This document shows, piece after piece, positions 32,771 to 52,384 of a stretch of DNA of 64,000 nt. Source of the stretch: an uncultured Candidatus Saccharibacteria bacterium (GTDB lineage: Bacteria; Patescibacteriota; Minisyncoccia; Phycocordibacterales; PALSA-1337). Position numbers and translations under genes: made by a program. Position 1 is the first letter of the stretch; every line of letters starts with the position of its first letter. The DNA lies in contig CAYVEL010000001.1 of NCBI GenBank assembly GCA_964450345.1, positions 16,671-80,670 of the forward strand, read 5' to 3'. A model generated the notes under the pieces. It was given only the letters and a program-made list of their open reading frames with translations, searched no databases and had not been told where the DNA came from.

Positions 32771-33007
32771 ATTCTTTATATATAAGAGAATTATTTTTAA
32801 TTAATAGAAGTGTGGATATGTGGAGAACTTTTTATATCTTTATTTATTAAGGGTTTTTTCTTTATAAGTTTTTAACATTTTGTTGATAACTACTTTATAA
32901 AATTTGATAACTTTTGCTTTTTTGTTTTTATACACTTTTTATTAGTAGTTTTTCAGTAGGTTTTCCCATACTTTTCCACAAGGATTCTAACAGGTTACCA
33001 ACAGGTT
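32771..33007. promoter_or_regulatory. dnaA-dnaN intergenic AT-rich region with DnaA boxes (candidate oriC/DUE)
   Basis: TGTGGATAT at ~32811 and TTTTCCACA at ~32975 (1-mismatch DnaA boxes), long A/T tracts. Confidence 0.55.
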
Positions 33008-34363
33008 TTAAACATTCATCATCGCTCTAAGCTGGCCGATCTCCTTACTTAACTCCGTATCTGTTTTAATATCGTTTTTAATTTTCTCACAAGAATGGAT
33101 GACTGTAGTATGGTCTCTTCCACCAAGCTTCTCTCCTATTGAAGGGAATGAAACATTAAAATCTTCTCTTAGAATATACATAACTACTTGGCGAGGTTTA
33201 ACCACTTCTTTCTTTCTGGTTTTATCGTAAATACTTTCTTCTTCTATATTATAAAACTGAGCAACGGTCTTAACAATCTCTTTAATAGCAACGTTTTTCC
33301 TAGGTCTAGCTGTGTCTCTTACGATGTTTTTAATATCAATAATACTCAAAGGGCGACCCTTAATCTGTGTTTGTATGACAATACTATTTAAAACACCTTC
33401 AAGCTCTCTTATATTCCCTGTAACTGTTTCAGAAAGGTAATCAATAACATCTTGGTTTAATATTAGATTGTAAGTTTTTGCCTTTGATTGAAGGATGGCT
33501 GATCTAGACTGAGCGTCTGGTGAAGGAATATCAATAATCATTCCAGCTCCGAATCTAGACTTTAGACGGTCTTCCAGATTCTGAATATAGTTAGGATGTT
33601 TATCTGAAGAAAAGATAATCTGCTTAAAATTGTCGTATAAATGATTAAACAAATGGAAAAGCTCTTCCTGGAATTTATCCTTTCCAGAGAAAAATTGAAT
33701 ATCATCTACAATTAAAAGATCATATTTTCTATACTTTTCTTTAAACTGGGCCATTCTACTGTTTTGAATAGCATCCCAACACTCAGTTCCGAATTTTTCA
33801 GAGGTTAAATAGAATACTTTCTTATTTGGAAAATGTTTTTTAACATGATTACCTATAGCTTGGGTTAAATGGGTCTTCCCTATTCCGGTATTACCGTAAA
33901 TAAATAGAGGGTTATAAACTTTTCCTGGATTTTTAATAACAGCTTGAGCTGCTGCGTGGGCAATTTCATTAAAAGGACCAATAACAAAGTTTTCAAATGT
34001 ATATCTAGGGTTTAGATTGTCTTCTTTATTAACATAAAGCTCGTTTAGAGGTAGTTCATTATACATATGAGCCTTTATCGCTGCAGCAGATGTTTCGCAC
34101 TTCTTGGGGTCTTTTTGCTCGTTGATGACATATTCTAGACCACGAACAGCATCATTGTGATTTCTTAGTATTCTTAAGATTGAATTATGAAACTTCTTCC
34201 AAAGCCACTCTTTTATGAATGTGCTTGGAACATTCAGATAAACTATACCGTCTTCTACTCTGTGGATGTTGGTGTCTTTAAACCACATCAAATAATCACT
34301 CTTAGAAAGGGTTAGTTCTATTTCTGTGCGAACATTTTCCCATAGTTTATTGTGGTCGTGCAT
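33008..34363 (-). CDS. dnaA: chromosomal replication initiator DnaA
   Basis: Walker A IYGNTGIGKTHL, box VII, C-terminal DnaA signature GGRDHTTVIHS; start set at MHDHNKLWENV (ORF-track 501-aa version runs into rpmH and DnaA-box cluster). Confidence 0.9.
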   Translation of the reverse strand: MHDHNKLWENVRTEIELTLSKSDYLMWFKDTNIHRVEDGIVYLNVPSTFIKEWLWKKFHNSILRILRNHNDAVRGLEYVINEQKDPKKCETSAAAIKAHMYNELPLNELYVNKEDNLNPRYTFENFVIGPFNEIAHAAAQAVIKNPGKVYNPLFIYGNTGIGKTHLTQAIGNHVKKHFPNKKVFYLTSEKFGTECWDAIQNSRMAQFKEKYRKYDLLIVDDIQFFSGKDKFQEELFHLFNHLYDNFKQIIFSSDKHPNYIQNLEDRLKSRFGAGMIIDIPSPDAQSRSAILQSKAKTYNLILNQDVIDYLSETVTGNIRELEGVLNSIVIQTQIKGRPLSIIDIKNIVRDTARPRKNVAIKEIVKTVAQFYNIEEESIYDKTRKKEVVKPRQVVMYILREDFNVSFPSIGEKLGGRDHTTVIHSCEKIKNDIKTDTELSKEIGQLRAMMNV

Positions 34364-34511
34364 TTGTTTTGTAAGTTGGAAATAATTATATACCTGTGGA
34401 TAGAATTTAGAACTTGTGGAATACTTAAAAATATGTTGAGAAGCTGTTAATAACCTGTGGACACAAGAAAATTTGATTTTTTGCAAATAATGTTCTAAAC
34501 TCTTATTCATC
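34364..34511. promoter_or_regulatory. dnaA upstream region with three DnaA-box-like TGTGGA elements
   Basis: TGTGGATAG, TGTGGAATA, TGTGGACAC within ~90 bp. Confidence 0.55.
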
Positions 34512-34658
34512 ATGTCGTTTACTTATAGTCCAAACAAAAAGAAGAGAGCACAGGCACACGGTTTTCTAATGAGAACAAGAACAAGCAAGGGTAGAAAGGT
34601 TCTCGCAAGAAGACGTGCTAAGGGAAGAAAGTCCCTTACTGTTTCTGCTGGTAGATAA
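34512..34658 (+). CDS. rpmH: 50S ribosomal protein L34 (not in ORF track, <60 aa)
   Basis: translation [48 protein letters not shown]; TAATG overlap with rnpA. Confidence 0.85.
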
Positions 34659-35011
34659 TGTTAAAATCCTCAAAAAGGCTTAGTAGAGCGTCTTTTGAGA
34701 AGGTTTTTACCGGAGGAAAGATAGTTAGAACTAAAAATTTTAATTTTCGAATTCTAAAAGACCCTACCCTACAGGGTCTTTTCGCGGTATCTGTCTCTAA
34801 GAAAGACTTTAAGACAGCTGTGTCCAGAAATAAAAACAAAAGAAGAGTTTACTCTATTATTAGAGAAATTAATAAAGAAAACAGAGAATGTTCTGTAATG
34901 AGTAAAAACAACACTACACAATCAATATCAGCAATAGTCTTTGTAAAAAAGACTGCGGAGTTAGAAAAATACTCCTTATTAAAGACTGAAATAGCTGATA
35001 TACTTAAATAA
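34658..35011 (+). CDS. rnpA: ribonuclease P protein component
   Basis: basic 117-aa protein LKSSKRLSRASFEKVFTGGKIV...AVSRNKNKRRV; rpmH-rnpA-yidC synteny. Confidence 0.8.
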   Translation: MLKSSKRLSRASFEKVFTGGKIVRTKNFNFRILKDPTLQGLFAVSVSKKDFKTAVSRNKNKRRVYSIIREINKENRECSVMSKNNTTQSISAIVFVKKTAELEKYSLLKTEIADILK

Positions 35012-35016
35012 CTAAC

Positions 35017-35751
35017 ATGTACACAACATATATATATAAACCACTATACAATGGCTTTATTTACTTAATGGACGCTTTTCCTTGGATGGATGCCGGTATT
35101 GCTATTATAGTATTTACTTTAATTATTAAGTTTGTTCTATTCCCTCTTTCTAAGAAAGCTATCGTTACGCAGTTAATGTTAAAGAAGGTGGAACCTGAAA
35201 TTAAGGCAATTAAAGATAAGAATAAGGGTAATAACCAGGCTGTGGCCGTTGAAACAATGGCTCTTTATAAGAAATATGGAATAAATCCACTGGCGAATTT
35301 CTTTTTGTTACTTATTCAGCTACCTATTTTGTTTGCTTTATACTCTGTGTTTATGAAGGCTGGTTTACCTGATATAAAAATTGATTTTCTATATAGTTTC
35401 GTAAGTGTTCCTACTGTTAATATGAATTTTCTAGGATTTCTAGACATAGGAAAACCAAATGTCATTGCTGCTATCATTGCTTCTGTATGTCAGTATATTC
35501 AGATAAATATTTCATTACCTAAGATTGATAAGAAGAATTATGATCCTAGTGATATGTCACAGGCTATAGCAAAAGGAATGAATACCAATATGAAGTACTT
35601 CTTCCCTGTTATTATTCTTCTGATATCTATTAAACTTGCATCAGCTATCGCTTTATATTGGATTGTAAGTAGCTTGTTTATGATTGGTCAGGAGCTTTTG
35701 GTTAAGAGAAGACTAGAAAAGCAGTTAGCAGAGAATGGAAATTTAAAATAA
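35017..35751 (+). CDS. yidC: membrane protein insertase YidC/Oxa1 (short, monoderm type)
   Basis: polytopic; position after rnpA; 244 aa. Confidence 0.8.
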   Translation: MYTTYIYKPLYNGFIYLMDAFPWMDAGIAIIVFTLIIKFVLFPLSKKAIVTQLMLKKVEPEIKAIKDKNKGNNQAVAVETMALYKKYGINPLANFFLLLIQLPILFALYSVFMKAGLPDIKIDFLYSFVSVPTVNMNFLGFLDIGKPNVIAAIIASVCQYIQINISLPKIDKKNYDPSDMSQAIAKGMNTNMKYFFPVIILLISIKLASAIALYWIVSSLFMIGQELLVKRRLEKQLAENGNLK

Positions 35752-35771
35752 TTAAATAAGACTTAAAATAA

Positions 35772-35806
35772 TAAAACCCCACAAATTTGTGGGGTTTTAT
35801 TATTTT
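35772..35806. terminator. hairpin AAAACCCCACAAATTTGTGGGGTTTT (bidirectional)
   Basis: seen in sequence. Confidence 0.7.
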
Positions 35807-35814
35807 AGTTAAAT

Positions 35815-37062
35815 CTATTTAATTTCCAATGACCAGAGAGATAGGTCGTTTTTGTTTTGGAAAATAAGATACTGTTCTTTAGGGTCTGTGAATATATTGA
35901 TTACGTCTATTGTTACTCCAGCTAAAGCGGTTGGATTTCCTAGTTCTTTTACTGAATCGTCTTTGGTGTCATAGCTCCATAGTCTATCATCTAATGAAAT
36001 TAAACCCTTGAACCATTCTTCTGGATATATACCCGATTTAAATTCTACAGGTATACCACAATATAGAACATTCTGATCTCTACTTCCCCAAGTACATTTT
36101 TCTGCCATTGTTCTAATAGGGGTATCTGTTATTTTTGATGTCTTTACATCATAGATTTTTACTTCGTATGTGCCATTGTTTATTGAAGAGAATGCGATCT
36201 TTGTATAATTTTTGTTTGGAAGTGTTTCAAGAGAGACTCCTTTTTGTATTAACTTTAAACCAGAGTTTGAACCTATTGTGTATAAATAAGATGATCCTGA
36301 TCCATAAGCACTAGCTTTTGTTGTTAGGATTAGAGTATTTTTTTCTGGCCAAGTTATATTCCAATATTTGTAAGGGTCTTTTAGTAAGGTCTCTGTTTTG
36401 TTTGTTTTTATATTCTTTTTATATACAGTTATTCCTTCGTCAGATACTATACTGTAAACAAATGATGGATCTTTAAGGTCTGGAGATGCTATAACAGTGT
36501 CAGAGTTATTCTCTATATTAATCATTTTAGACAAAAATGGAGATTCGTCGCTAGTAGATGAAGAAGTGTTTTTTGTTAAAGATATAACCCTATCAGCTAT
36601 AGTATTTTTATTTTCTAGATATTTTATAAAATAAGTCATTCCGTCTGGTGACCAGATAGCCTCGTATAAATCTGGTATTGTTTTGTTTAATATTTTAACA
36701 ACAGAAGCACCGTCTGTTTTTGTTTCGTAAACATGTCCTCTTCCCCTTTCCACATATCTGATTATTGTTGAACTCGCTGATGTTGTGGCGATTGTTCCTG
36801 CTACGGGATCAGCAGATATTAATCTTAGTCTTGGTAAATTTGCCTGGATAGGGTCATCTATTGGTATTGTGCTTGTTGATACGGGTCTTTTTCCTCCATT
36901 AACAGAACTTATAGGAAATGGAGAGAAGCCATTTTTTTTACCACCGTTATTTTCTTCGGTTGTTGGAAGTGTTTTTATGAACGAGAAGTATATAACTATT
37001 GCAATTGTTATTATTGCAAGTATTGCTCCTAGTATTAGTATGTTTTTGGCTTTTTTATCCAT
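35815..37062 (-). CDS. membrane-anchored beta-propeller (TolB/WD40-like) protein; last gene of T4SS-like operon
   Basis: N-terminal TM, repeated beta-strand-rich blocks (YSIVSDEGITVY, WSPDGMTYF, LYCGIPV) suggestive of propeller; 27-nt gap to upstream gene. Confidence 0.4.
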   Translation of the reverse strand: MDKKAKNILILGAILAIITIAIVIYFSFIKTLPTTEENNGGKKNGFSPFPISSVNGGKRPVSTSTIPIDDPIQANLPRLRLISADPVAGTIATTSASSTIIRYVERGRGHVYETKTDGASVVKILNKTIPDLYEAIWSPDGMTYFIKYLENKNTIADRVISLTKNTSSSTSDESPFLSKMINIENNSDTVIASPDLKDPSFVYSIVSDEGITVYKKNIKTNKTETLLKDPYKYWNITWPEKNTLILTTKASAYGSGSSYLYTIGSNSGLKLIQKGVSLETLPNKNYTKIAFSSINNGTYEVKIYDVKTSKITDTPIRTMAEKCTWGSRDQNVLYCGIPVEFKSGIYPEEWFKGLISLDDRLWSYDTKDDSVKELGNPTALAGVTIDVINIFTDPKEQYLIFQNKNDLSLWSLEIK

Positions 37063-37089: not shown

Positions 37090-38115
37090 TTATTTTGTTG
37101 TCGATGCGGTATTAGTTTTTGTTGTCAGTATGTCTCGCATTCTTTTTGCGTCACTCGCAATCTTTTCTTCTATCGCCTTTTGAGTGAAAGCAACAATCTC
37201 ATCTTCAGCGTCTTTGATCGCTTTTATTTGTGCTGCGTCTAAGGCTTGAGATTGTGTGGCGTTTTCCATTTTTGCTTTTACCATATCGCTAAATCCGTTG
37301 TTCTTACTATTAAATGTTTCTAGTACTTGGGAAGCTAATTTTCCCTGATTTGAAGCATATGTTAGTTCAAGATTTGTAGAATTAATTGTTTGTAGAGCGA
37401 AGGTTTTTTGTGCGTCTAGTTGAGCATTGTAAGCATTTTGAAACAATTGAGAATTCAATTCAGTTAGTTGTTTTTCTATTTCTGTTGCTTTAGAGTAGTC
37501 GCCACTTTTTATTGCCGCTTCCTTCTCTGCTGCTAGACTGCTGTACTCTGTTTTTAGGGCATTGAAATCTTTATTGTAAGACTGAATATTTGAAATTAGC
37601 TGTGCTTGTGATGTAGAGAAATTACCTTCGTAATCATAGGCTTTTAGATATTGTGGCATTGCTAATGTGTCGAAATTCGCTTTGAAATTAACATACCTTG
37701 GGTCTATGTAGTAAAGAACTATGTAAGAACATAGAACCATTAATAGTCCGTATATAGCGTTCTGTACGTAGGCTCTTCCCTCAGATGTTCCACTGAATGA
37801 GTCTGTTGTGGCTAGTTTAAAACCTCCCCAAGATATCATGATTACTGCTAGAGCGATTCCAATTCCAATTCCTAATCTGTAAATCTGTACTAAGTAAGCC
37901 CCGAACTGGTCCTGTTTATATGAGGTCACATTTGTTCCGTCAGTACATGATCCATTGGTTACCTCCCCTGAATTTCCTGCACATGGTAGTGGTTCTAGAA
38001 GTTTATATTCTATTCTAGAGTCTGTTGTCTCTGCTTTAACATCACTACTGATGAAAGCTACAGACATTAAAATCATAAAGCTTAGAATTATGATTGTATA
38101 TATATTTCTATTCAT
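37090..38115 (-). CDS. VirB2/TrbC-like pilin-domain protein fused to long coiled-coil
   Basis: signal peptide, then two closely spaced hydrophobic helices (LGIGIGIALAVIMISWGGF / AIYGLLMVLCSYIVLYYI) as in TrbC/VirB2, then ~200-aa Q/A/K-rich coiled-coil. Confidence 0.4.
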   Translation of the reverse strand: MNRNIYTIIILSFMILMSVAFISSDVKAETTDSRIEYKLLEPLPCAGNSGEVTNGSCTDGTNVTSYKQDQFGAYLVQIYRLGIGIGIALAVIMISWGGFKLATTDSFSGTSEGRAYVQNAIYGLLMVLCSYIVLYYIDPRYVNFKANFDTLAMPQYLKAYDYEGNFSTSQAQLISNIQSYNKDFNALKTEYSSLAAEKEAAIKSGDYSKATEIEKQLTELNSQLFQNAYNAQLDAQKTFALQTINSTNLELTYASNQGKLASQVLETFNSKNNGFSDMVKAKMENATQSQALDAAQIKAIKDAEDEIVAFTQKAIEEKIASDAKRMRDILTTKTNTASTTK

Positions 38116-38116
38116 T

Positions 38117-39133
38117 CTATTGGTTTAGATTAATCCCTACTCCAGCATGTGCTTCTTGTAATAGATGGCCAGAGTTATTAATAGTTACAGATACTTGAGT
38201 CTGTCCTGTGTCGCTGGTTTTTGGTTTTAGAACAATTATTTTTTTTGTTTTTAATTCTGGATATTCTGTATAACCTATATTCCAATTGTATGATAGAAGA
38301 TTATTTAGAAAATCATTTTTATTAAAATAGAAAGGCTCTGCTTCTACTGCTACCTCATTAGCCTTTATTGATAATAAATTCGGTATTGCTTTGTTCCACA
38401 TTGTTCCGAAAATTGGATTCTTTTCATATAAGATAACTTGTGATTCCATTGGTTCAAATACAAGAGATTCTGTTCCTGTCATACCATGGTCTGGAGAAGT
38501 TACTTCTACTGAGACCTCCATATCTCTTCCTAGAAAATTTCCTGGTACTGATACCGAGGACTTCCCTCTTCCTGATTGATCTTGCAAGACCTCAGAGTTC
38601 TTCTTCCATTTAAAGACTAGGTCTTTAGAAGGAATAGCCTTTCCTTCAACGATGAAAGATGGGACAGCCACTAATTCAATATTATTTTGCTGAGTATATA
38701 GTGGAATTCCTTTATAAAATGGTGGAACTGTAGAGTTTGATGACCATAGAAGACTAACGTCTGCTGGTGTAATTTTATATACTCTTTCTACGTTCACACC
38801 TGCACTTGTTGTAATTGATATTTTTATTACACTAGTTTTTCCAGCTTGAGGAGCATTAAAAGTAAATTCTCTTAATCCTTTACCGCTCTTAATAAGCGCT
38901 CCGTTATTAAAGATTTTTACATCAGAGCTGTTTATGTCTAAGGGTGTGTAACTTGTAAGCTTAACAGTAACTAATTGCTCTGGTTTAGGAAGTTCTGGAT
39001 CAATATCTACCTGCAATGAGCCAGCTATACCTTGGTTTATATAGTCTGTTTCTGCTTTAGAGATTGAGAAATTTATGAAAAATAAAACAACTAAAGCTAT
39101 ATAAAAAAACGCTTTTTTATAGTTCGTTACCAT
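38117..39133 (-). CDS. secreted/anchored beta-rich protein of T4SS-like operon, unknown function
   Basis: N-terminal hydrophobic leader FFYIALVVLFFINFSISKA; no recognisable motif. Confidence 0.45.
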   Translation of the reverse strand: MVTNYKKAFFYIALVVLFFINFSISKAETDYINQGIAGSLQVDIDPELPKPEQLVTVKLTSYTPLDINSSDVKIFNNGALIKSGKGLREFTFNAPQAGKTSVIKISITTSAGVNVERVYKITPADVSLLWSSNSTVPPFYKGIPLYTQQNNIELVAVPSFIVEGKAIPSKDLVFKWKKNSEVLQDQSGRGKSSVSVPGNFLGRDMEVSVEVTSPDHGMTGTESLVFEPMESQVILYEKNPIFGTMWNKAIPNLLSIKANEVAVEAEPFYFNKNDFLNNLLSYNWNIGYTEYPELKTKKIIVLKPKTSDTGQTQVSVTINNSGHLLQEAHAGVGINLNQ

Positions 39134-39202
39134 TAAGTAATTCTAGCACAAAAATATGGTTATAAGGCCATTAAAATTCATATTTTTGTGGATATTTAAT
39201 GC

Positions 39203-39544
39203 CTATTTAGGCGATATGCTAGGTTTAATAGAAGCGGTTGTTGGTATTTTAACACCAAGCTTGTCTTCAGCTTTCACAAACATAATTATGGCTATTATTC
39301 CTACTGTTGTTTCTGGTAGAACTTCTAATACTGGTATCAGACCAATAGTAATAGACGCTAGATTTGTTGCTAATTTTTTTCCACTGAATACAGAGATTCC
39401 TTTTAGATAGAAAAATACATTTAGAGCCACCCATCCGATTGCGGTTACAATACTTCCTATTGCGGGTATCCAGTTTAATAAATCCATTATCACCGCTACG
39501 GTCACTAGTCCTCCAATAGCCATTTTACTCAGACGGTCATTCAT
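39203..39544 (-). CDS. small polytopic membrane protein (3 TM) of T4SS-like operon
   Basis: hydrophobic segments; stop overlaps nothing, start overlaps VirB4 stop (39544). Confidence 0.45.
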   Translation of the reverse strand: MNDRLSKMAIGGLVTVAVIMDLLNWIPAIGSIVTAIGWVALNVFFYLKGISVFSGKKLATNLASITIGLIPVLEVLPETTVGIIAIIMFVKAEDKLGVKIPTTASIKPSISPK

Positions 39545-41358
39545 TATCTTGATGATTGAGCGAAATCGTCCTTCGCCTGTTTAATAGCTAACATCTGTTC
39601 TGGTTTTGTAGATATTAGCTGATCTTCCGCATAAGAAGCCTCGATTTTAATAGCTACGTGCTTCATTCCTACGAAGAAGATGCCCTCTCCTACTCCTGAT
39701 TCTAGAAGTAAGTATTTCTCTTCGTCTGTTAGGTTAAAGATTGTTTGAATCTTATCTACTGCGGTCGGAGATTGTTTAAGTAGAATCTGAATAGAAGAGT
39801 TTGTAACAATAGGTGTTCCATATGGTGACTTTAGGAAGTCGTCCACGTCTTGTGTGATTGTAGCCATTCCTAGCCAGTACTTTCTACCTCTCTTAGCAAT
39901 CATAAGAAGGAATGAAGCTGTATCTTCAGTTTTCATCATCCACCATGCCTCGTCGATAACAAGTAATCTCTTCTTTTTAACTCTCTTAACAGCATTCCAG
40001 ATGTGGTGTGTAACTATATACATGGCTACAGGTTTAAGCTCCTCCTCCATGTCTTTAATACAGAAGACTACGAATTTCTTGTTTATATCAATGTTTGAAG
40101 GTTTGTTTACGAAACCAGACCATGTACCACGAGTGAACTTAGATAGTCTTTGTACTAATGATTCAGCACCCTCCATTCCAGCTAGTACAAGTTCAAAGTC
40201 AGAAAGTAGAGGTGGTTCTATATTAACGAAATCAGATTCAGGTGTAATATCCTTAAGAGCGTAAGTCTCTGTTATTGCTCGGTCGATGATAGCATCTTCT
40301 TCCTTTGTTAGACCTCCGAACATAATTCTAAATAGTCCTACAAGGTTAATGATGTGTGATCTTAGAACATCTGATCTAGCTTCGTCTGGAGCAGGAGCTG
40401 GTAAGTCGAATGGATTAATATGGTTATCAGAGTTAAGAGATATGTTTATGAATCTACCTCCTGTAGTTTCTGCCATGTCTCTATACTCACCTTCTGGATC
40501 CACTACTATTACCTCTGTATCGAACATCAGTGTTCTAAGGATTTCTAGTTTTGTACAATATGATTTACCAGAACCAGATTTAGCGAATGTTACAGAGTTG
40601 TAGTTTTCTAGACTGAATCTGTCGAATAGAACAAGGCTGGAATTGTGTCTGTTTATACCATATAGAATACCTTTTTCGTCAGTAAGGTCGAATGATACGA
40701 ATGGGAATATGCTAGATAGAGGTGAAGAGTTTAGTTTTGAATGAATATTTAGTTCATCACTACAGATAGGTAGAATACTCTTATAACCTTGTTCTTGCTG
40801 GAATAAAGCAGGTTTAACATACACTAGTTTAGCCTCAAGAATAGACTTAATTTCAGACTCCATTTTATCAAGTTCAGATTCGTTGCTTGCGTATAGTGTT
40901 ATGTAAACTCCTACTTCAAACATTTTTTCTTGAGCCTGCATTAAACTGTCTCTAAGATTTTCTAGATCTTGGTATGCAGTGTCTAGCATTGGGTCACGAA
41001 CCAGTCCCCTCTTCTCTCTGTCACCTATCTGGCTTTGTACCTCAGCTACTTTCTTTTGGAAATTTTTAAGTATCGAAGCTGTGTCGATTGGATGTATAAA
41101 AATAGAAACGTTAAAAACTTTATCTAGATTTATTATTGGAGCGAACCAGCTATCTGTTAGGAATCTTGGGTATGAGATTACGAAGAAAGTTCTAGCTACT
41201 TTTTCTCCGAGATGTAATTCCTTTGGTGTTATCTTTAAAGCTGAAGGAGCAATAATGTCCTGCAGTTCAAGCATTCCAGAATTATATATTTCATCAGGTA
41301 AAACAGCTGTTATGGCTGTGTTATTTTTTTTACCAAATAAGTTTGAAAAAAATCCCAT
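39544..41358 (-). CDS. VirB4/TrbE/TraE-family conjugation-type ATPase (ATPase portion)
   Basis: Walker A FAKSGSGKSY; Walker B RLLVIDEAWWMM; ...RKYWLGMATITQDVDDF... arrangement typical of VirB4. Confidence 0.8.
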   Translation of the reverse strand: MGFFSNLFGKKNNTAITAVLPDEIYNSGMLELQDIIAPSALKITPKELHLGEKVARTFFVISYPRFLTDSWFAPIINLDKVFNVSIFIHPIDTASILKNFQKKVAEVQSQIGDREKRGLVRDPMLDTAYQDLENLRDSLMQAQEKMFEVGVYITLYASNESELDKMESEIKSILEAKLVYVKPALFQQEQGYKSILPICSDELNIHSKLNSSPLSSIFPFVSFDLTDEKGILYGINRHNSSLVLFDRFSLENYNSVTFAKSGSGKSYCTKLEILRTLMFDTEVIVVDPEGEYRDMAETTGGRFINISLNSDNHINPFDLPAPAPDEARSDVLRSHIINLVGLFRIMFGGLTKEEDAIIDRAITETYALKDITPESDFVNIEPPLLSDFELVLAGMEGAESLVQRLSKFTRGTWSGFVNKPSNIDINKKFVVFCIKDMEEELKPVAMYIVTHHIWNAVKRVKKKRLLVIDEAWWMMKTEDTASFLLMIAKRGRKYWLGMATITQDVDDFLKSPYGTPIVTNSSIQILLKQSPTAVDKIQTIFNLTDEEKYLLLESGVGEGIFFVGMKHVAIKIEASYAEDQLISTKPEQMLAIKQAKDDFAQSSR

Positions 41359-41362
41359 ATTA

Positions 41363-41998
41363 TTATAATTGAATTGGCTTCTCTGTTTCGCCGGGGTTAA
41401 ATATCTTATAGAACAGTTCTACTACTTCTTCTGTTCCTAGTTGAGCAACTTTAAGTCCGCTTCTTGTAAGTCCTTGCACAACCACGTTTGCTCTTTGTTC
41501 TAGCTGACTTCTATTCTCTTCAAAAATGTCTATTTTTGCACTAGCGTCATCTTTATTAGAGTGGGGAAACATCTTAAGAATTGAGCTACCACCCTCTCCT
41601 AATGCTGGTGGTGTATAAGGAACTATAATAAAGAAACTCTTACTCATGATGCTTGTCTGTTCGGTGAAGGCCTTTATGAATTCAACATATTCTCTAACTT
41701 GAATTTTCATTAATTCAGAAGTTTGCTCTTTATAACGCTCTTCAAGTAGTGCTAAATATGGCCTAATATCTAGTTTTTTTGACTGAACTAGTATCTGTAC
41801 AGAAAAATCTAAAGAGTTTAGAAAATTTTGGAATTGTGAGATTATACCGTTTTGTTCGTCAGTAGATTTAAGAGCAAAGTTTAGAGAAGATCCCATAAGA
41901 ACTAATCTCATGGCACCATCTTTAAGTATTACAATACCATCTCTAACTTCTTTGATGGGTACGAAACTTTGTGAGCTGTTAACGTTTACTGTAGACAT
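41363..41998 (-). CDS. VirB4 N-terminal-like domain protein (CagE_TrbE_VirB-like), separate ORF 4 nt upstream of ATPase ORF
   Basis: VPIKEVRDGIVILKDGAMRLVLMGSSLNFALKSTDEQNGIISQFQNFLNSL pattern like N-terminal region of VirB4 proteins. Confidence 0.4.
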   Translation of the reverse strand: MSTVNVNSSQSFVPIKEVRDGIVILKDGAMRLVLMGSSLNFALKSTDEQNGIISQFQNFLNSLDFSVQILVQSKKLDIRPYLALLEERYKEQTSELMKIQVREYVEFIKAFTEQTSIMSKSFFIIVPYTPPALGEGGSSILKMFPHSNKDDASAKIDIFEENRSQLEQRANVVVQGLTRSGLKVAQLGTEEVVELFYKIFNPGETEKPIQL

Positions 41999-42438
41999 TA
42001 TCTTGTTTGGTTTTTATTTTGATCTTTATTTATTCCTTCGTGTATATCTAGACTCCAAGCAAGGTCTCTTAGCTTGCTTTCAGAAAGTCTAGGTACATTT
42101 AATGGATTTGATGAACTTATATTTCCCACTGATTTAACTGGCGTTTTAACTACTTTGTCTACTTTCTTCCAAAGATATAATTTGCTTCCTTTGTAATAAT
42201 TGAATGCTGCTTCTAGAGTAAAAATCATGGGTCTCTTATTTACCTGATAGAAGGCTATAGCAAAAGAAAAAGCTACTACAAATATTATCAAAGGTAATGA
42301 TATTATTTTGTAAGGTATAAATAAATATAATATAAAAGATAAACCAGCACCTCCTGCTAAGTATATTCCTTGCTTAAGGGTAAAATAACTAAAAAGCTTA
42401 TCCTCTACTTCTATGAATTGAGGAACCTGATAGTTCAT
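41998..42438 (-). CDS. VirB3-like small membrane protein (two TM hairpin)
   Basis: 146 aa, hairpin GIYLAGGAGLSFILYLFIPY / ISLPLIIFVVAFSFAIAFY, located immediately upstream of VirB4 genes. Confidence 0.4.
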   Translation of the reverse strand: MNYQVPQFIEVEDKLFSYFTLKQGIYLAGGAGLSFILYLFIPYKIISLPLIIFVVAFSFAIAFYQVNKRPMIFTLEAAFNYYKGSKLYLWKKVDKVVKTPVKSVGNISSSNPLNVPRLSESKLRDLAWSLDIHEGINKDQNKNQTR

Positions 42439-42452
42439 GAGTATATTTTACA

Positions 42453-43049
42453 CTAATTTAATGGTTCGCGATACGGATCAACTGTGTAATTTGTGTTTTT
42501 AACTGTACTTACTGTGGATTCCTTCAGATTTGATTCCACAACAGTTAGATTATGTTCCGTTTGATTTGCTATAGGGGTAACTATCGGAGCACTATTTATA
42601 GGTGTTTCTATTGTTTTAACAGGAGTTTGGGTTGGTGTTGTTGCGGTATTTACTGGAGTATTATTTATTACAGGGGCTACTGGTGCTTGGGTAGTATTTG
42701 GGTCTTTTGCCAAATTTGGTATTTCTGCGTCTGTTTTCTCACCCTCACCCATTTCGTAGTTGTAAGACATTAGAATTCTAGTTTTAAGAGGTTCTAGAAT
42801 CGCTGTATTAATGTCGGGGAGCATTTTAATAACGGTCTCCTCATCTACTTCTACTGATTCTATTATGTTTCCAACTAATTCAGACTTCTGAATATTTCCA
42901 TACACATAATTCTTTATAATCGCAATTAAGTTTCCTATCTGATTTATGTTTAAGTTGAATTTTTCTCCAACCTTAACAACGGTGTCATTAAATTCACTAG
43001 ACACTAAGTATTGTATTACTTCTGGTTTTATTATAGTTCTTGTATCCAT
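42453..43049 (-). CDS. hypothetical soluble protein with Thr/Pro/Val-rich C-terminus
   Basis: ORF in operon; no family assigned. Confidence 0.4.
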   Translation of the reverse strand: MDTRTIIKPEVIQYLVSSEFNDTVVKVGEKFNLNINQIGNLIAIIKNYVYGNIQKSELVGNIIESVEVDEETVIKMLPDINTAILEPLKTRILMSYNYEMGEGEKTDAEIPNLAKDPNTTQAPVAPVINNTPVNTATTPTQTPVKTIETPINSAPIVTPIANQTEHNLTVVESNLKESTVSTVKNTNYTVDPYREPLN

Positions 43050-43055
43050 ATTTTT

Positions 43056-45188
43056 TTAAATTCCCCAGTTTGCCTTATTTTTTGGATCTGAGACGTACTG
43101 ATATCCTGGTATTGGAACAGGTGGATTTCCAGCTTCAAATGCTGCTAACTGAGTACCTATGTCTTTAGCTTGCTCGGTACCACCTATTGCCTGCTCTAGT
43201 TTCTTTAATGAATTAGTATCAAGTAATTTAGCAATCTTAGCTTCCTTGTAGTATGGTTTTCCATTAGAGTCATTTGTAAATAATAGATCTCTTAACTCTT
43301 CTCCTTCTAGTGCTTTGAAGTTGTCGACTATTTCTTTATGTGGTTTACCGCTTACACCAGATAAGCCCTCAGCAATACCCTTGATTCTAGCTTCTTGTGC
43401 AGCAACAAAATCCTTGTAATCTGTCTTCTCGTCTTTTTCTTTATTATTAAAGTATTTCTTACCTATAATAGCTGCTAGTGTAGGGTTATCCTTAACATCA
43501 CTTAACTTAATTTCAGAACGTTCTTTTTCTGATAATGCACCAATTCTATCTGATAGACCCTTACTTAGTTTATCCATCTCAGATTGAATTCCATTATTTT
43601 CAGCTGTTTGATATGCAGCTAAGAAGTCTTTAGCGGTCTCTTTTGCGGCATTAATATTCTCAGCGCGCTCTCTATCGTTTTTAATATTTTTCTCTAGTTC
43701 TGCTTCAGACTTAGAATCTTTATATATTCCCTTCTGTTCGTAAGATTTCTTTAATGAGTCAGCAATAGGTCTAACTGTTTCAGCAAAAGCACCATTGTAT
43801 TTTGTTGCGCTGTCGATTTTTCCAGATATAGTCTGGTTTACAGCTCTAGAAGCACCTTTTGTTAATAATGCATTAGTAAATGATTTTTTATCTGTTGCTG
43901 CCTTTCCAAATCTTGTCTTAGCTAAGTCTGCCATAATACCTGTACCGCCCGCAGAATTTTCAAGTCTTGTAGCGAATTTCTGACCCGCTGCTTGGCCTGT
44001 TTCACTAGCAAGGGTTCCGAGGCTACGATTAACAAATCTAGCATTGTTACCCATACTGAATCTTTCTTTACCAGACTCTGCCATTTTTATAATTCTATCT
44101 CCACCCCACTCTCCTAGTGACGTACCTTTCTTTAGTGCTGCCATATAGAAACCCATCACTATTGCATATGTAACTATTGTAGAAACTAGTTCTCTTATTA
44201 CTTTTTCGAATTCTGATCCACTACTCTTTCCTGTGATTAGAGCTAATTGTTTTGATAATGCACTGTCTGTTCCGGATCCTACTAGTATTGCTAGACCTAC
44301 GTAAAGTAGAAGCATGAACATTGGAGCAAATAGAGCCGCATTTATAAATTTATTCCAAAGACTTCTTCCTTCTTTTGTAAGATCCCCAAGGAATTCTAAG
44401 TTTATGAAATTAAATGCAAGTACTGGGCTAGCAGCTAACATTCCAATCAATACTAATGTTCTAATCATGAATAGTGCTGCACCTGCAAAAAATAATACGG
44501 CTGTAATTAATTGTATTGAACCATTGAAAATTGCTAAGGTGTATTGCTGGAAACCTGTAGATAGAATTTTTGCAGCAGACCAACCACCAGAAGACTTTAA
44601 TGCGTCACCATTCATCTTTGTTAAGTTCATTAGCACATCAGATAAACCTCCACTAAAAGTGGAGTTGGCAGGGATAATTGCATTATATATACCTAATGCG
44701 AACATATTTGTGGCATCTATTATTAATTTCACTATAACGAAGCTGAAGTTAATAAAAAAGCCGGCAATTATAATGCCAATAATAAGTTCCCCGACCTGAC
44801 TCATTTTTGCCTTACCAATGATAACTTTAATTGAAGTAAATAAGAGCAAGAATATAAAGAACATTGATATAACATCTCTTATTACTACCCACGCCTGCCC
44901 TATTCCACTCATTCCATTTATTATCGTAGAGATTCTAAGACTGAAATCTATAGCCATGTTAAGAGCATAACCAGCTATTGAAAGTATGAAAGAAGTTATT
45001 GCTAAATATAAACCTAGTATAAACTGTATTAGTGCATCTGGTCTGAAAAATGTTGTCCAACTGACTTCTGTGGCTTGACTGGTAGCTGCTATAGCAGAAT
45101 TCGCAAAGAAAAATACAGCTAAAATAGCTATTGAAGTTAAAGCTATTTTAATTGATAGGTTTTTCTTATTAATAATTCTGCTAAACAT
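43056..45188 (-). CDS. VirB6/TrbL-like large polytopic membrane protein with long hydrophilic C-terminal domain
   Basis: signal-like N-terminus, >=6 hydrophobic helices in first ~380 aa, then charged coiled-coil-rich region ending in NPPVPIPGYQY. Confidence 0.45.
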   Translation of the reverse strand: MFSRIINKKNLSIKIALTSIAILAVFFFANSAIAATSQATEVSWTTFFRPDALIQFILGLYLAITSFILSIAGYALNMAIDFSLRISTIINGMSGIGQAWVVIRDVISMFFIFLLLFTSIKVIIGKAKMSQVGELIIGIIIAGFFINFSFVIVKLIIDATNMFALGIYNAIIPANSTFSGGLSDVLMNLTKMNGDALKSSGGWSAAKILSTGFQQYTLAIFNGSIQLITAVLFFAGAALFMIRTLVLIGMLAASPVLAFNFINLEFLGDLTKEGRSLWNKFINAALFAPMFMLLLYVGLAILVGSGTDSALSKQLALITGKSSGSEFEKVIRELVSTIVTYAIVMGFYMAALKKGTSLGEWGGDRIIKMAESGKERFSMGNNARFVNRSLGTLASETGQAAGQKFATRLENSAGGTGIMADLAKTRFGKAATDKKSFTNALLTKGASRAVNQTISGKIDSATKYNGAFAETVRPIADSLKKSYEQKGIYKDSKSEAELEKNIKNDRERAENINAAKETAKDFLAAYQTAENNGIQSEMDKLSKGLSDRIGALSEKERSEIKLSDVKDNPTLAAIIGKKYFNNKEKDEKTDYKDFVAAQEARIKGIAEGLSGVSGKPHKEIVDNFKALEGEELRDLLFTNDSNGKPYYKEAKIAKLLDTNSLKKLEQAIGGTEQAKDIGTQLAAFEAGNPPVPIPGYQYVSDPKNKANWGI

Positions 45189-45231
45189 TGGTTTTTATAT
45201 TATCTCACCTTTCCGAACTTTTTTGTACTAT

Positions 45232-46758
45232 TTAATTCTGTAAACAAGCCGAATTGTAATTTGAAAGCAGTCTTCTATATCCGATTATTTTATCTGTTAC
45301 TTCTTTCGATAATGCTTGGGCTTTAGTTACATCGTTTGGTGAATGTAGTGAATATGAGAATGATGTAGCTTGCTGAGCAATATACTTAAAGTCTTCAATA
45401 GTCTTCTTTGAATCTACTTGAACGTAATAATTATCTATCTGATCCATTAGTGCGGCTGTTGAATTATAAGATGCGCTAATTTGTGTGAAGTATGTAGATA
45501 TCTCGTTATCTAAAGTAGATTTTATCTGAGAGTATACAGTGTTGTAGTTTAGAGCTCTTGTTTTACAATTTTCTAATATAGTAAGAGCGTTTTCATAGTC
45601 TGATTTTATAGCAAATAGAGAGTTATACATTTGCATGTATTCATTGTAGTATTTCTCCTCACCTGCCTTAATCATATCTAAGAATTCGTACATCGACTCT
45701 TTGTTTGCGTACGTAGATTCATTTAACTGCTGTTCTTCTAATTGAGCACCTCTACTATTCCAGTAGTTATTTTGATCAGAAGTACCACTACCGCTTACTG
45801 AAGAAACTCCGGCAGTAACGACTTGTTGTATTAATTGTGATACAGCTGCATTTATAATTTCGTCGAATTCATCAGCTAATTCTAATTGTCTGAAACCACT
45901 ACCTAGAGATGTAGAAAGGGTATCGTTAACAACTGCTCCTGGTGTTGTGATAGAACAGTCTGAAGCTGATCTTGTTGTTGCTGCTGAGCTGCTAGATGTT
46001 ATTGGACTTATGTAAGATGTTGCTCCTGTAGAACTGTTTTTACATTTCTCAATTGATAAGAAACCTTTTCCTTGTCCTAGTTCATTATTTTTCTTAACAA
46101 TTTTATTAGCTACTCTAGCATCAAGTTCTGTTTTTGCGGTTAGGAATGCTCCGTAAGTATTATTTTGAGGATATTGTGATACCTGAATAAAATTACTCCA
46201 TCCTCCTCCCTGTTCGAATGAGCCACCTAATGATTTTACATTTTGTCCGTTTATACTGATGTTATTTGGTATGTTCTGAATATTATTAACAACCTGACTC
46301 AATGTACAAGAAACTTTTCTCTTGAATGGTGAATAAGATAGCTGTAATGCTAGACGAATATCTATACCCATTGAGCTACATAGAAAGTTTAGGTCTGGGT
46401 CGTTTTCAATAAATGAACCAATTTGCTCATCTATCATGTCAGTGAAGAATTGACTTGGATTTGATAGGAATGTTGGACTGCCTTTGAAACCGGAGTTTAT
46501 CCAGTCAACAATGCTTTGGGTCATGTACTTAAGCATCATCTTCATTGCTGCTGTACCTATAGAGTTTAGTGTTATTGGAGTACACTGACCAAACATGGAC
46601 ATCACACCACAAGTCTTTTTATCGTGTGCTGAACCTGTTGGTATGCTTTGTGCTGCTTGGGCGTATATTATTGTCGGCGATGCTGTAAAACCTAAAATGC
46701 TTACGAGCATGGTAATCGCAAAAAGTTTTTTTGTGATTGAATTACTAAAATATTTCAT
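45232..46758 (-). CDS. secreted Cys-containing protein of T4SS-like operon, unknown function
   Basis: signal peptide KLFAITMLVSILGFTASPTIIYAQA; 508 aa. Confidence 0.45.
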   Translation of the reverse strand: MKYFSNSITKKLFAITMLVSILGFTASPTIIYAQAAQSIPTGSAHDKKTCGVMSMFGQCTPITLNSIGTAAMKMMLKYMTQSIVDWINSGFKGSPTFLSNPSQFFTDMIDEQIGSFIENDPDLNFLCSSMGIDIRLALQLSYSPFKRKVSCTLSQVVNNIQNIPNNISINGQNVKSLGGSFEQGGGWSNFIQVSQYPQNNTYGAFLTAKTELDARVANKIVKKNNELGQGKGFLSIEKCKNSSTGATSYISPITSSSSAATTRSASDCSITTPGAVVNDTLSTSLGSGFRQLELADEFDEIINAAVSQLIQQVVTAGVSSVSGSGTSDQNNYWNSRGAQLEEQQLNESTYANKESMYEFLDMIKAGEEKYYNEYMQMYNSLFAIKSDYENALTILENCKTRALNYNTVYSQIKSTLDNEISTYFTQISASYNSTAALMDQIDNYYVQVDSKKTIEDFKYIAQQATSFSYSLHSPNDVTKAQALSKEVTDKIIGYRRLLSNYNSACLQN

Positions 46759-47735
46759 ATATTTTTATACCAAAAAAATCCGGCATCTGTTGTTTTAAAA
46801 CTAATGTTTTTACTGAATAATTTCTTAGCTATTTCATTTAAAATTCCGTTCTGTTTTTCTGTTATCGCCCCCTGATTTTTCATAGCGGTCAGTGCTTTAA
46901 GGGGATCTTTATCTAAGGCACTTAATTTAACCATCGACTGTCTATTTTCATAAAGATTATTAAGGAAATCTACATGTGAAGATACTAATGATTCAGGAAC
47001 TGTGACAGCGAGTACATCCCTCTCCATTCTAGAGTATATACTGATAGCATTTTTTGCTGCAGATGAAAAAGCAATGACATCGTTTTCAGAATTCATTACA
47101 TTGGGAAATGGATTTTTTATATATTCGTTTTGGTATTTAATATATATTTGAGCTAGTATATTTCCGTATATTTGGAAAGATAACTCCGAATCAGGTATTG
47201 ATTTTACGGAAGATTTTTTATACATCTCTACTGGTATAGAAGCGCTATTTACTTCTACGCTGTAAAGTAATTCATTAATTAAATCTTGTTGACTTGCTTT
47301 ATCTCCAGATAAATTAGCCTGTTTTAATTCAATAAATTTAGCGAAAAAGTTTCTTGAGAATTGTTCGGTGTCTGTTAAGTTTTCAGATTCTTTATTTGTG
47401 CTAGATGCTGTTTTTGAATCCGAAACTACTTTGTCATTTGGTCCTTTTTTAAGTGGATCTCTGTTTGCTTGGACTTCATCATAGTCACTGGTTCCATCTC
47501 CATCTGTATCTACGAGTTTTTTATCAGTACCACGGACATCTTCTTCCCAATCTTTAAGTCCATCTCCGTCAGTATCAACAGAATCTGATTCTGTTTGTAT
47601 TAATGATGAACCCGCAAGAATTTGTGTATTGGTATAAGAGTATTCTTTCTGTCTAGAAATCAATACGGTAATAGCTACTAGTACAATTACTATCGAGAAA
47701 ATAATAGAAAATGTAATTTTTTTGTTAATTTTCAT
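46755..47735 (-). CDS. membrane-anchored protein with thrombospondin type-3-like Ca-binding repeats; first gene of operon
   Basis: N-terminal TM; DTDGDGLKDWEED...DTDGDGTSDYDE DxDxDG repeats. Confidence 0.5.
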   Translation of the reverse strand: MKINKKITFSIIFSIVIVLVAITVLISRQKEYSYTNTQILAGSSLIQTESDSVDTDGDGLKDWEEDVRGTDKKLVDTDGDGTSDYDEVQANRDPLKKGPNDKVVSDSKTASSTNKESENLTDTEQFSRNFFAKFIELKQANLSGDKASQQDLINELLYSVEVNSASIPVEMYKKSSVKSIPDSELSFQIYGNILAQIYIKYQNEYIKNPFPNVMNSENDVIAFSSAAKNAISIYSRMERDVLAVTVPESLVSSHVDFLNNLYENRQSMVKLSALDKDPLKALTAMKNQGAITEKQNGILNEIAKKLFSKNISFKTTDAGFFWYKNI

Positions 47736-47806: not shown

Positions 47807-48190
47807 ATGAGAAAATATCTTATTATATTTTTTATAGCAACTACCCTATTTTTAGCTAGTCCATCAAAATCGATGGCGCAGTTAGCTAAGTATTTCGGAG
47901 GACATGTATATGTACAGTTGTACTGTACCTGTTCAGCAAATTATTGGCTGTTTATGATGCCTTTATATCTTAACTCGTCCGTTTCTACAGCCGGAGCTTT
48001 GCTTTGGGTTCCTGGACAAAGTATGGCTTATGCAAACAATATTAATCCTCCAACACCTATGACATGGCTACTTGGTGAATATCAAGAGAATAATGGTAAT
48101 GGTTGTAAAATGGTTTCTGGACCAACCTGTGTTGAAATACCATCGATGGGAACCATAAAGAGAGCCGGAATCAGTTATCCAGGGATGTAA
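47807..48190 (+). CDS. small secreted Cys-rich protein (127 aa)
   Basis: signal peptide MRKYLIIFFIATTLFLASPSKSMA; 6 Cys; own terminator. Confidence 0.45.
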   Translation: MRKYLIIFFIATTLFLASPSKSMAQLAKYFGGHVYVQLYCTCSANYWLFMMPLYLNSSVSTAGALLWVPGQSMAYANNINPPTPMTWLLGEYQENNGNGCKMVSGPTCVEIPSMGTIKRAGISYPGM

Positions 48191-51292: not shown

Positions 51293-52384
51293 ATGAAATT
51301 ATATTCTAATTCTACAGTAAAAAATAATAAAATTATTAGAGGTTTTCTGTCCCTTGTAGTTTTATCTGCTGTCTCTATTCCTACCACCGCTTCTGCTTCG
51401 GTGTTTTCTATTTTTGGTGATGTTTTTACTAATAAATCAGTAGGTGCTGCACAGATGTCATTAAATTCTCAGAACATACAGTTATTAGAGGCACCAATAA
51501 ACGCAGATCCTCTAGTTTTAACTAAGGAGGCTGATATTGTTATGACTAATTCGTCAGTACTAGATTCTGAAGCGGGTCCATCGGGTTCTAGTGCGGATGT
51601 GTTAGAGGCTAAGAGTATAAATGGACAGATTTCAGTATATACCGTTAAGAAAGGCGATAATATATCTAGTATTGCTAAATTATATGGTGTTTCAGTTAAT
51701 ACTATTCTTTGGGCAAATAACTTATCTAAGGGCGTTGCCTTAAAAGAGGGACAAGATCTAATTATCTTGCCTATTTCTGGTATAAACCATGTTGTTAAGA
51801 ACGGAGAGACTCTTTCTGGAATCGTTAAGAAGTATGGTGCTGATATGGATGAAGTTTTAGCTTATAACGATTTAACCGTTAATTCTGTTTTAAAGTTGGG
51901 AGATGAGATTTTGATGCCAGACGTTGATATCGCAGAGCCTACTGCCGTAGCTTCTAAAACAAATTCTTCAACAGCTGGTACATCTAGATATCTTGGTGGA
52001 AGTGGTCCTTATTATCCTGGATATTATGCAATGCCTATATACGGTGCTCATAAGACACAAGATACTCATGGATGGAATGGTATAGATTTCGGTGCTCCAA
52101 TAGGAACTTATATCTATGCTGCTGCTGATGGTGTTGTGACTGTTAGTACAATGAATGGAGGATGGAATAAGGGTTATGGTAACTATGTGGTTATTAATCA
52201 TCCAAATGGAACTCAGACTCTGTATGGTCATGCTACAGCTGTATTCGTAAAGTATGGTGACTCAGTGAAAAAGGGTCAGGTTATCGCATCGGTCGGTTCT
52301 ACTGGTAAGTCTACTGGTCCTCACCTACACTTTGAAGTTAGAGGAGCTGCAAACCCATTTAGTAAGAAGTATTTAGGATACTAA
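51293..52384 (+). CDS. LysM-LysM-M23 peptidoglycan endopeptidase
   Basis: two LysM (YTVKKGDNISSIAKLYGVSVNTILWAN; HVVKNGETLSGIVKKYGADMDEVLAYN) + M23 HxxxD..HLHFEV. Confidence 0.9.
   Translation: MKLYSNSTVKNNKIIRGFLSLVVLSAVSIPTTASASVFSIFGDVFTNKSVGAAQMSLNSQNIQLLEAPINADPLVLTKEADIVMTNSSVLDSEAGPSGSSADVLEAKSINGQISVYTVKKGDNISSIAKLYGVSVNTILWANNLSKGVALKEGQDLIILPISGINHVVKNGETLSGIVKKYGADMDEVLAYNDLTVNSVLKLGDEILMPDVDIAEPTAVASKTNSSTAGTSRYLGGSGPYYPGYYAMPIYGAHKTQDTHGWNGIDFGAPIGTYIYAAADGVVTVSTMNGGWNKGYGNYVVINHPNGTQTLYGHATAVFVKYGDSVKKGQVIASVGSTGKSTGPHLHFEVRGAANPFSKKYLGY

Follow-up and report, generated by a model that had tools for sequence, protein, structure and literature searches.

A chromosomal VirB4-type secretion gene cluster beside the origin-region genes of an uncultured Patescibacteria genome

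A cluster of eleven genes related to type IV secretion systems (T4SSs) lies on the minus strand of a 64,000-nt stretch of contig CAYVEL010000001.1 (positions 16,671 to 80,670), from the genome of an uncultured Candidatus Saccharibacteria bacterium (assembly GCA_964450345.1). The whole of this 64-kb stretch is referred to as the window, and its open reading frames (ORFs) and their translations place the cluster between window positions 47735 and 35815 (Table 1). The genes are referred to below by the lengths of their products. For comparison, a scan of species-representative genomes found relatives of the VirB4 protein of the cluster on at least 593 contigs, and the best 80 of these were used as related loci. 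Forty of the 80 loci have full 10-kb flanks.

An eleven-gene unit with a VirB4-type core

A preliminary description of the window had recognized an operon-like run of co-directional minus-strand ORFs, as is seen in the ORF calls, and had placed eleven of them between 37090 and 47735. Only ten lie in that interval. The eleventh, encoding the 415-aa protein, sits outside it at 35815–37062, and the operon therefore continues past the former boundary at 37090 to this gene and the hairpin that follows. The 415-aa ORF is counted as part of the unit because it is kept in 40 of 40 related loci and because a terminator-like hairpin stands directly 3′ of it, between this gene and the convergent yidC. 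The hairpin likely marks the 3′ end of the operon. Read from gene 1 to gene 11, the intergenic distances are −4, 43, 6, 14, −1, 4, −1, 69, 1, and 27 nt; most agree with the overlaps or 0–30-nt gaps described previously, while two (43 and 69 nt) exceed them. The close spacing and the terminal hairpin are thus compatible with a single operon. A scan for sigma-70 consensus promoters was uninformative (39 matches versus 49.6 expected from shuffles), and searches of the rest of the window with hidden Markov models built from the orthologues revealed no further members of the cluster's families.

Table 1. Features of the cluster, in window coordinates and in gene order.
Feature	Product	Position	Strand	Description
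Gene 1	326 aa	46755-47735	-	One N-terminal transmembrane helix, TSP3 repeats, ~200-aa C-terminal domain
Gene 2	508 aa	45232-46758	-	Helical protein, secreted or N-terminally anchored
Gene 3	710 aa	43056-45188	-	Polytopic membrane protein, putatively VirB6/TrbL-like ("extended VirB6")
Gene 4	198 aa	42453-43049	-	Soluble, Thr/Pro-rich tail
Gene 5	146 aa	41998-42438	-	PrgI family (VirB3-like), two transmembrane segments
Gene 6	211 aa	41363-41998	-	TrsD-like, counterpart of the N-terminal portion of an unsplit monoderm VirB4
Gene 7	604 aa	39544-41358	-	VirB4-family ATPase
Gene 8	113 aa	39203-39544	-	Small membrane protein, ~3 transmembrane helices
Gene 9	338 aa	38117-39133	-	Signal/anchor helix and three predicted tandem Ig/FnIII-like domains
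Gene 10	341 aa	37090-38115	-	Signal peptide, putative VirB2-like T4SS pilin module, ~200-aa helical/coiled-coil extension
Gene 11	415 aa	35815-37062	-	N-terminal transmembrane anchor and conserved extracytoplasmic domain
Hairpin		35764-35807		Bidirectional, terminator-like; 20-pair stem followed by a T-rich tail

Assignment of the 604-aa ORF to the VirB4 family, as made in the preliminary description, is borne out by curated profiles. The ORF scores 382 bits against NCBIfam conju_CD1110 ("VirB4-like conjugal transfer ATPase, CD1110 family"), for which the curated cutoff is 325 bits, and the match covers positions 179–734 of the 752-position profile. Further matches are to Pfam P-loop_TraG (95.5 bits) and AAA_10. 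Of the two ATPase motifs quoted earlier, DEAW occurs as stated in the Walker B region (residue 469), while the Walker A motif at residue 259 reads AKSGSGKS and not GSGSGKS. A weak match to CedB is also seen (E = 1.7e-8), with 33.6 bits against a cutoff of 700 bits.

The 211-aa ORF matches the other end of the VirB4 profiles. It aligns with positions 3–111 of the 752 in conju_CD1110, with positions 101–233 of the 894 in VirB4_plasma, the N-terminal region of a Mollicutes VirB4 family (E = 3.5e-12), and with TrsD (E = 3.3e-4), in each case below the NCBIfam cutoff. In 78 related loci it is again a separate ORF of 202–272 aa (~211 aa), with a median identity of 63%. Since the separation recurs in this many loci, the 211-aa ORF is regarded as a genuine TrsD-like gene and not the product of a frameshift. 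Duplication of the start of the 604-aa ORF was considered and rejected, as the two proteins share no mutual similarity and match complementary parts of VirB4 profiles. VirB4 is thus split here into a TrsD-like N-terminal ORF and the 604-aa ATPase, an arrangement that had gone unrecognized in the preliminary description.

The 146-aa ORF passes the Pfam PrgI model (PF12666) with 31.6 bits against a gathering threshold (GA) of 27. Its product has two hydrophobic segments by hydropathy and is found in all 40 loci with a median identity of 49%. The identification of this protein as VirB3-like with two helices therefore stands, but the gene is not directly upstream of the ATPase gene as had been stated, being parted from it by the TrsD-like ORF alone.

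Two further T4SS components are assigned through their orthologues. While the window copy of the 710-aa protein matches nothing in Pfam or NCBIfam, seven of its 45 orthologues match Pfam TrbL/VirB6 (best 6e-5). Hydropathy predicts a signal-like segment, ~6–7 transmembrane segments, and a hydrophilic C-terminal half of ~350 aa, a topology compatible with VirB6/TrbL. The protein occurs in 40 of 40 loci with its invariant residues concentrated in the transmembrane region, and a PDB profile search with the family returned nothing relevant. It would thus be VirB6-like only by way of its orthologues. The same applies to the 341-aa protein as a putative VirB2-like pilin. The window copy scores 18.4 bits against Pfam T4SS_pilin (PF18895), below the GA of 26.6, whereas 43 of 46 orthologues match this model (best 3.8e-12) and one matches TrbC/VirB2. 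By hydropathy, the pilin module has two transmembrane helices, and a PDB search with a profile of the C-terminal extension finds coiled-coil chains only. At the level of orthologue families, the earlier calls of a VirB6/TrbL-like protein and of a TrbC/VirB2-like pilin fused to a coiled coil both hold.

The pilin module is conserved, while the domain fused to its C-terminus differs by species. In the window it is a coiled coil, and among the orthologues it can be Peptidase_M15_4 (n = 3), VanY (n = 1), or an SLT transglycosylase (n = 1). A pilin that carries a cell-wall hydrolase may replace the absent VirB1.

A fixed position among core genes

The VirB4 relatives of the best 80 loci share 74–80% identity with the 604-aa ATPase. 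Where a taxon is named, these loci belong to metagenome-assembled genomes (MAGs) of Parcubacteria, Paceibacterota, Taylor-, Zambryski-, or Nomurabacteria, or of generic Saccharibacteria/Patescibacteria; the others are MAGs labeled "bacterium". In 40 of 40 loci with full flanks, the gene order is uvrD-rsmA-[326-508-710-(198)-146-211-604-(113)-338-341-415]-yidC-(rnpA)-dnaA-dnaN, with the cluster genes given by product length. The 508-, 710-, 146-, 211-, 604-, 338-, and 415-aa genes were detected in every one of these loci. This collinearity of both cluster and position marks a conserved unit rather than a set of unrelated insertions.

In the window, yidC, rnpA, dnaA, and dnaN lie on one side of the cluster, and rsmA (ksgA), uvrD/pcrA, and a gene for a LysM-M23 peptidase lie on the other. 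The preliminary description had named yidC and rsmA as flanking core genes, to which rnpA, dnaA, dnaN, and uvrD can now be added. The classical origin-region set dnaN-dnaA / rnpA-yidC (31670–35751) immediately adjoins the operon. The G+C content of the cluster is 0.346, compared with 0.334 and 0.342 in the flanks, and is ~35% throughout the window.

As described previously, genes for mobility are lacking in and around the cluster. Reading of the translations and Pfam searches of the flanking ORFs gave no recognizable relaxase, VirB11, or coupling protein of the VirD4 type in the 64-kb window, and no adjacent integrase occurs within it. The sole recombinase in the window is an Xer-like tyrosine recombinase (59443–60378, plus strand), encoded 11.7 kb from the operon among housekeeping genes. 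It has Phage_integrase and SAM-like N-terminal domains, lies between the genes for an NYN-domain protein and exonuclease III, and is most likely a chromosomal dimer-resolution enzyme and not the integrase of an element. Because the context is fixed in 40 of 40 loci, relaxase, coupling protein, and VirB11 are missing from the window, and the only recombinase is distant and Xer-like, the cluster is taken to be a vertically inherited unit beside the origin.

Accessory proteins and neighboring genes

The 508-aa family has a conserved N-terminal part of ~300 aa with four near-invariant Cys residues and a variable C-terminal part, which is a coiled coil in the window. Among its homologues (P0001–P0120) the C-termini are swappable and include a coiled coil, F5/8 type C (discoidin-like), and bacterial Ig-like domains. 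Six homologues match Pfam DUF4141 and five of 88 match NCBIfam TrbJ (best 6.6e-7), with both kinds of match spanning the first ~45 residues only. The TrbJ-like motif is absent from the window copy and its closest relatives, and the window subclade has a CG...C motif instead. The gene is directly upstream of the VirB6-like gene, and a secreted helical protein encoded in this place is also found in the Gram-negative VirB/Trb systems. In the Agrobacterium virB operon, for example, virB5 lies upstream of virB6. A TrbJ-like N-terminus is a second feature that some homologues share with these systems. The window protein is, however, twice the size of VirB5. The 508-aa protein is possibly a VirB5/TrbJ analogue, which is offered as a hypothesis and not as a finding.

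The 338-aa gene is present in 40 of 40 loci, and its product is the most conserved of the unassigned proteins. An AlphaFold2 model (pLDDT 85, pTM 0.70) shows an N-terminal helix followed by three Ig/FnIII-like sandwiches. In a Foldseek search of the PDB, the top match of the model was the phage protein Hoc (3shs; 1.6e-9), followed by many adhesin-type Ig/FnIII tandems. The model therefore suggests a generic surface stalk or an adhesin-like protein. A VirB8/PrgL-like identity was rejected for this protein, since the model is Ig/FnIII-like and not NTF2-like.

The TSP3-repeat membrane protein reported previously corresponds to the 326-aa product, which passes the Pfam TSP3_bac model (31.2 bits; GA 25), as the earlier call implied. 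This model describes bacterial repeats of the calcium-binding type and is also matched by 18 of 40 orthologues. The protein has a single hydrophobic segment (residues 7–25) and is present in 30 of the 40 full related loci. In a PDB profile search with the family, the sole match at E ≤ 0.01 was 7c7r (E = 0.0011), within the TSP3-repeat region; the C-terminal ~200-aa domain had no match, and nothing outside the repeat region pointed to an NTF2-like (VirB8/PrgL) domain.

The 415-aa protein has a transmembrane segment at residues 8–26, and its gene is found in 40 of 40 loci, in each case with the pilin gene on one side and yidC on the other. It is apparently the ORF for which a beta-propeller had been proposed. 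The window copy has no Pfam match, and the hints of a propeller are weak: TolB chains in the PDB profile search (E = 0.005), and DPPIV_N (5e-4) and PD40 (0.005) in one orthologue each. The extracytoplasmic domain is possibly a beta-propeller.

The 198- and 113-aa genes are fast-evolving and are detected by sequence in few loci, and neither product matches a family in Pfam or NCBIfam. The 198-aa protein has no transmembrane segment, and its sequence orthologues are detectable in just seven of 40 loci; a soluble ORF of 121–599 aa fills the slot between the VirB6-like and PrgI genes in 39 of 40. The 113-aa protein has ~3 transmembrane segments by hydropathy, and its slot holds a membrane ORF with 1–4 predicted transmembrane segments in ~30 of 40 loci.

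Several neighboring genes encode further envelope proteins. The LysM-M23 gene (51293–52384, plus strand), with LysM and Peptidase_M23 domains, is 3.5 kb from the operon on the opposite strand and is found near the cluster in nine of 40 full-length loci (10 of 80 overall). Its product may be an operon-associated wall hydrolase; M23 and LysM domains are noted in VirB1-like proteins of Patescibacteria in PMC12102498. Between rsmA and the operon, and divergent from the latter, lies a 127-aa ORF (47807–48190, plus strand) with a signal-like N-terminus and several cysteines, which has no family match and is kept in nine of 80 related loci. The window also holds type IV pilus genes, identified by their translations and comprising pilM/pilN/pilO-like ORFs and a PilB-type ATPase (1038–3116, minus strand, and 23102–24769, plus strand). 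Because these share the window with the T4SS, both of the surface machines discussed for epibiosis are encoded in this genome. A candidate surface adhesin of 1296 aa is encoded at 5544–9434 (plus strand); this secreted protein contains recurring FnIII-like segments, repeats rich in Cys, and a linker rich in Thr and Pro. Finally, a gene for polynucleotide phosphorylase (PNPase; 55676–57889) lies 8 kb from the operon. The gene next to it (54336–55667, minus strand) encodes 443 aa without a Pfam match; the product has one transmembrane segment and an N-terminal half rich in Pro and Gln.

Relationship to known systems and alternative readings

T4SSs of this kind are already known from Patescibacteria. 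In a recent survey (Quinonero-Coronel et al. 2025, PMC12102498), VirB4 was reported in 2,417 of 3,035 genomes, nearly all of it in a monophyletic clade nested within the MPF-FATA type of monoderm conjugation systems. The survey gives TrsD, PrgI/VirB3, VirB6, and VirB2-like pilins (PF18895) as associated with virB4, describes VirB8 as mostly undetectable and relaxases as rare, and places the cluster of Paceibacteria and Microgenomatia near dnaA, dnaN, rnpA, ksgA, and rpmH. By transposon sequencing, the T4SS genes and pilin array of Candidatus Southlakia epibionticum were found to be essential for epibiotic growth, and this T4SS is likewise without a coupling protein or relaxase (Wang et al. 2023, PMC10633639). 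A 2025 review regards them as forming a new subgroup of T4SSs and speculates on a pilus conduit for exchange with the host (PMC12857230). Most recently, a 2026 preprint described tubular structures, possibly T4SS pili, at the parasite-host interface and proposed feeding on host RNA (10.64898/2026.06.21.733656).

The window cluster shares with the Patescibacteria-clade T4SSs (PMC12102498), including Southlakia SEML1_0006-0019 (PMC10633639), a monoderm-type VirB4 with adjacent TrsD-like and PrgI/VirB3-like genes. Also in common are a putatively VirB6-like polytopic protein and, at the family level, a VirB2-like pilin close to virB4 (PF18895 here, PF18895/PF04956 for the clade). In both, a relaxase or coupling protein nearby and a recognizable VirB8 are lacking, and the Paceibacteria systems share the chromosomal place close to dnaA, dnaN, rnpA, and ksgA. 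The differences lie in the outer parts. Only one pilin gene is present in the window, and its product bears a long C-terminal extension, in contrast to the array of 2–11 short pilins described for Saccharimonadia and Microgenomatia. Unlike the clade systems, the operon holds no lysozyme or peptidase gene, the LysM-M23 gene being outside it. The five other conserved accessory genes (326, 508, 113, 338, and 415 aa) match no T4SS component named in the sections of the survey that were consulted.

Compared with the MPF-FATA systems (pCF10 prg/pcf, pGO1 trs, C. difficile CTn, and Mollicutes integrative and conjugative elements (ICEs)), the cluster has in common a CD1110-family VirB4 above cutoff, PrgI and TrsD-like proteins, the order VirB6-like ... 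VirB3-like - VirB4, and the lack of outer-membrane core components. In contrast, no relaxase, type IV coupling protein (T4CP; PcfC/TcpA type), PrgK-like hydrolase, PrgL/VirB8-like protein, or PrgB-type adhesin was found in the window, while a VirB2-like pilin is present and the chromosomal position is fixed and vertically inherited rather than mobile. With the Gram-negative VirB/Trb systems it shares, besides the features of the 508-aa family noted above, the two-helix module of a VirB2-like pilin, but it has no VirB7, VirB9, VirB10, or VirB11.

Taken together, the locus is read, with a probability of about 0.9, as a chromosomal, vertically inherited T4SS of the Patescibacteria clade, of the Paceibacteria/Parcubacteria type, repurposed from monoderm (MPF-FATA) conjugation machinery. 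The preliminary description had likewise seen a non-conjugative, chromosomal, VirB4-based apparatus; the core of that reading holds, given the profile cutoffs, the synteny in 40 of 40 loci, and the lack of flanking mobility genes. The observation as a whole is confirmed with corrected boundaries, and its interpretation is supported as largely right. By homology, the split VirB4 would dock on the PrgI/VirB3-like and VirB6-like proteins to form a translocon in the cytoplasmic membrane. The VirB2-like pilin with its extension may then be extruded or displayed as a pilus-like or surface structure, and the 508-, 338-, 415-, and 326-aa proteins probably form the envelope-spanning, host-contacting part. 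From gene content and the genetics published for a relative, such a system would not serve conjugation; it would move proteins or other macromolecules between epibiont and host, or provide intimate contact between them. The place next to the chromosomal origin (oriC) may, in addition, raise the gene dosage. The host contact in an episymbiotic lifestyle suggested earlier is thus plausible, and the same link has been published.

Several points weigh against this reading. Within the operon, neither a VirB8-like nor a VirB1-like component was identified, and the window copies of the VirB6-like and pilin-like proteins themselves score under curated thresholds. Assignment to the clade draws on the VirB4 profile and on the relatives rather than on a VirB4 phylogeny, although it has indirect support in that the best profile is a monoderm VirB4 family and the 80 closest relatives are either labeled as MAGs of Patescibacteria lineages or lack a taxon name. 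The genome beyond the 64 kb seen here could encode a coupling protein; VirD4 homologues are far from virB4 in many Patescibacteria (PMC12102498). Evidence on function, substrate, and direction of transport is indirect here, and essentiality is known only from Saccharimonadia, the locus of which has a different organization (PMC10633639). Export, import, and pure display or adhesion are not separable by sequence alone.

Among the alternatives, the one that survives best, although somewhat unlikely, is that the T4SS operates in the import direction, in the manner of archaeal Ced or Helicobacter ComB, and brings DNA, RNA, or other macromolecules of the host into a nucleotide-auxotroph cell. The CedB match of the ATPase is in keeping with import, but it is far under the cutoff, and no CedA-like or ComB-specific component was identified. 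The absence of relaxase and T4CP, both needed for DNA export, is consistent with uptake as well, as are the host-RNA feeding proposed and the possible T4SS pili seen in the 2026 preprint and the uptake from the host speculated on in PMC12857230; the PNPase gene 8 kb away is faintly suggestive. The direction of transport cannot, however, be read from the genes, and in Southlakia the T4SS is essential whereas DNA uptake by ComEC is not (PMC10633639, as summarized in PMC12857230). Since ComEC uptake is dispensable there, import of DNA by that pathway is not the reason for the essentiality of the T4SS.

A rather doubtful extension of the preferred T4SS reading is that the Paceibacteria version represents a distinct 11-gene architecture with a modular extracellular part. 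A VirB5-like tip (the 508-aa family) with interchangeable host-binding C-termini (coiled coil, discoidin-like, or Ig-like) and a VirB2-like pilin with interchangeable cargo, including peptidoglycan hydrolases, would jointly make up a pilus whose displayed enzymes and adhesins recognize and breach the host envelope. If true, a monoderm T4SS would here have its first VirB5 analogue and its first conjugative-type pilin with a cargo.

That the apparatus serves mainly adhesion or pilus display is improbable. Under such a scheme, the VirB4 machine would only assemble a pilin-based surface structure with variable domains (coiled coils, cell-wall hydrolases, or lectin-like domains) that bind or breach the host envelope, and there would be no substrate channel. 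The variety of extracellular extensions fused to the pilin module, among them hydrolase domains of the M15/VanY and SLT types in orthologues, argues for display, as do the swappable C-termini of the 508-aa family (discoidin-like and Ig-like among them) and the Ig-like (338 aa) and TSP3-repeat (326 aa) accessory proteins. However, VirB6 and VirB3, the channel parts, are still present and show strong conservation, a filament has yet to be demonstrated for the 341-aa pilin, and type IV pili, of which pilMNO and pilB are in the window, are the established adhesion organelles of these bacteria according to the abstract of PMC12206443.

The remaining reading, that the cluster is the intact or decayed transfer module of a Gram-positive-type ICE moving DNA between cells, draws on VirB4, TrsD, and PrgI, for which the best profile matches are conjugation families from ICEs and plasmids of Firmicutes and Mollicutes, but it is largely refuted, and an ordinary ICE is ruled out, by the lack of relaxase, coupling protein, and adjacent integrase in 64 kb, the identical context next to oriC with core-gene borders in 40 of 40 species-level genomes, a composition equal to that of the flanks, the distance and housekeeping context of the Xer-like recombinase, and, in PMC12102498, the rarity of relaxases in Patescibacteria (103 of 3,035 genomes) and of their genes near virB4 (15 of 109).

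The system itself is already known: the same T4SS, in the same place beside the origin and without conjugation genes, was described in 2023–2025 (PMC12102498, PMC10633639, and PMC12857230). Its chromosomal position, lack of mobility genes, possession of a pilin in a monoderm-type system, core-gene flanks, and link to episymbiosis have all been published. What novelty is left lies only with the accessory genes, which are uncharacterized and specific to Paceibacteria, and with the modularity of the C-termini in the pilin and 508-aa families. No new kind of system is added by the window, which presents a Paceibacteria-type example that is clean, complete, and well delimited. The class to which it belongs matters: nearly all of a huge and largely uncultivated radiation has it, and the one species tested requires it for epibiotic growth. 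For structural and genetic studies of how these bacteria interact with their hosts, the conserved accessory proteins and modular C-termini offer reasonable targets.

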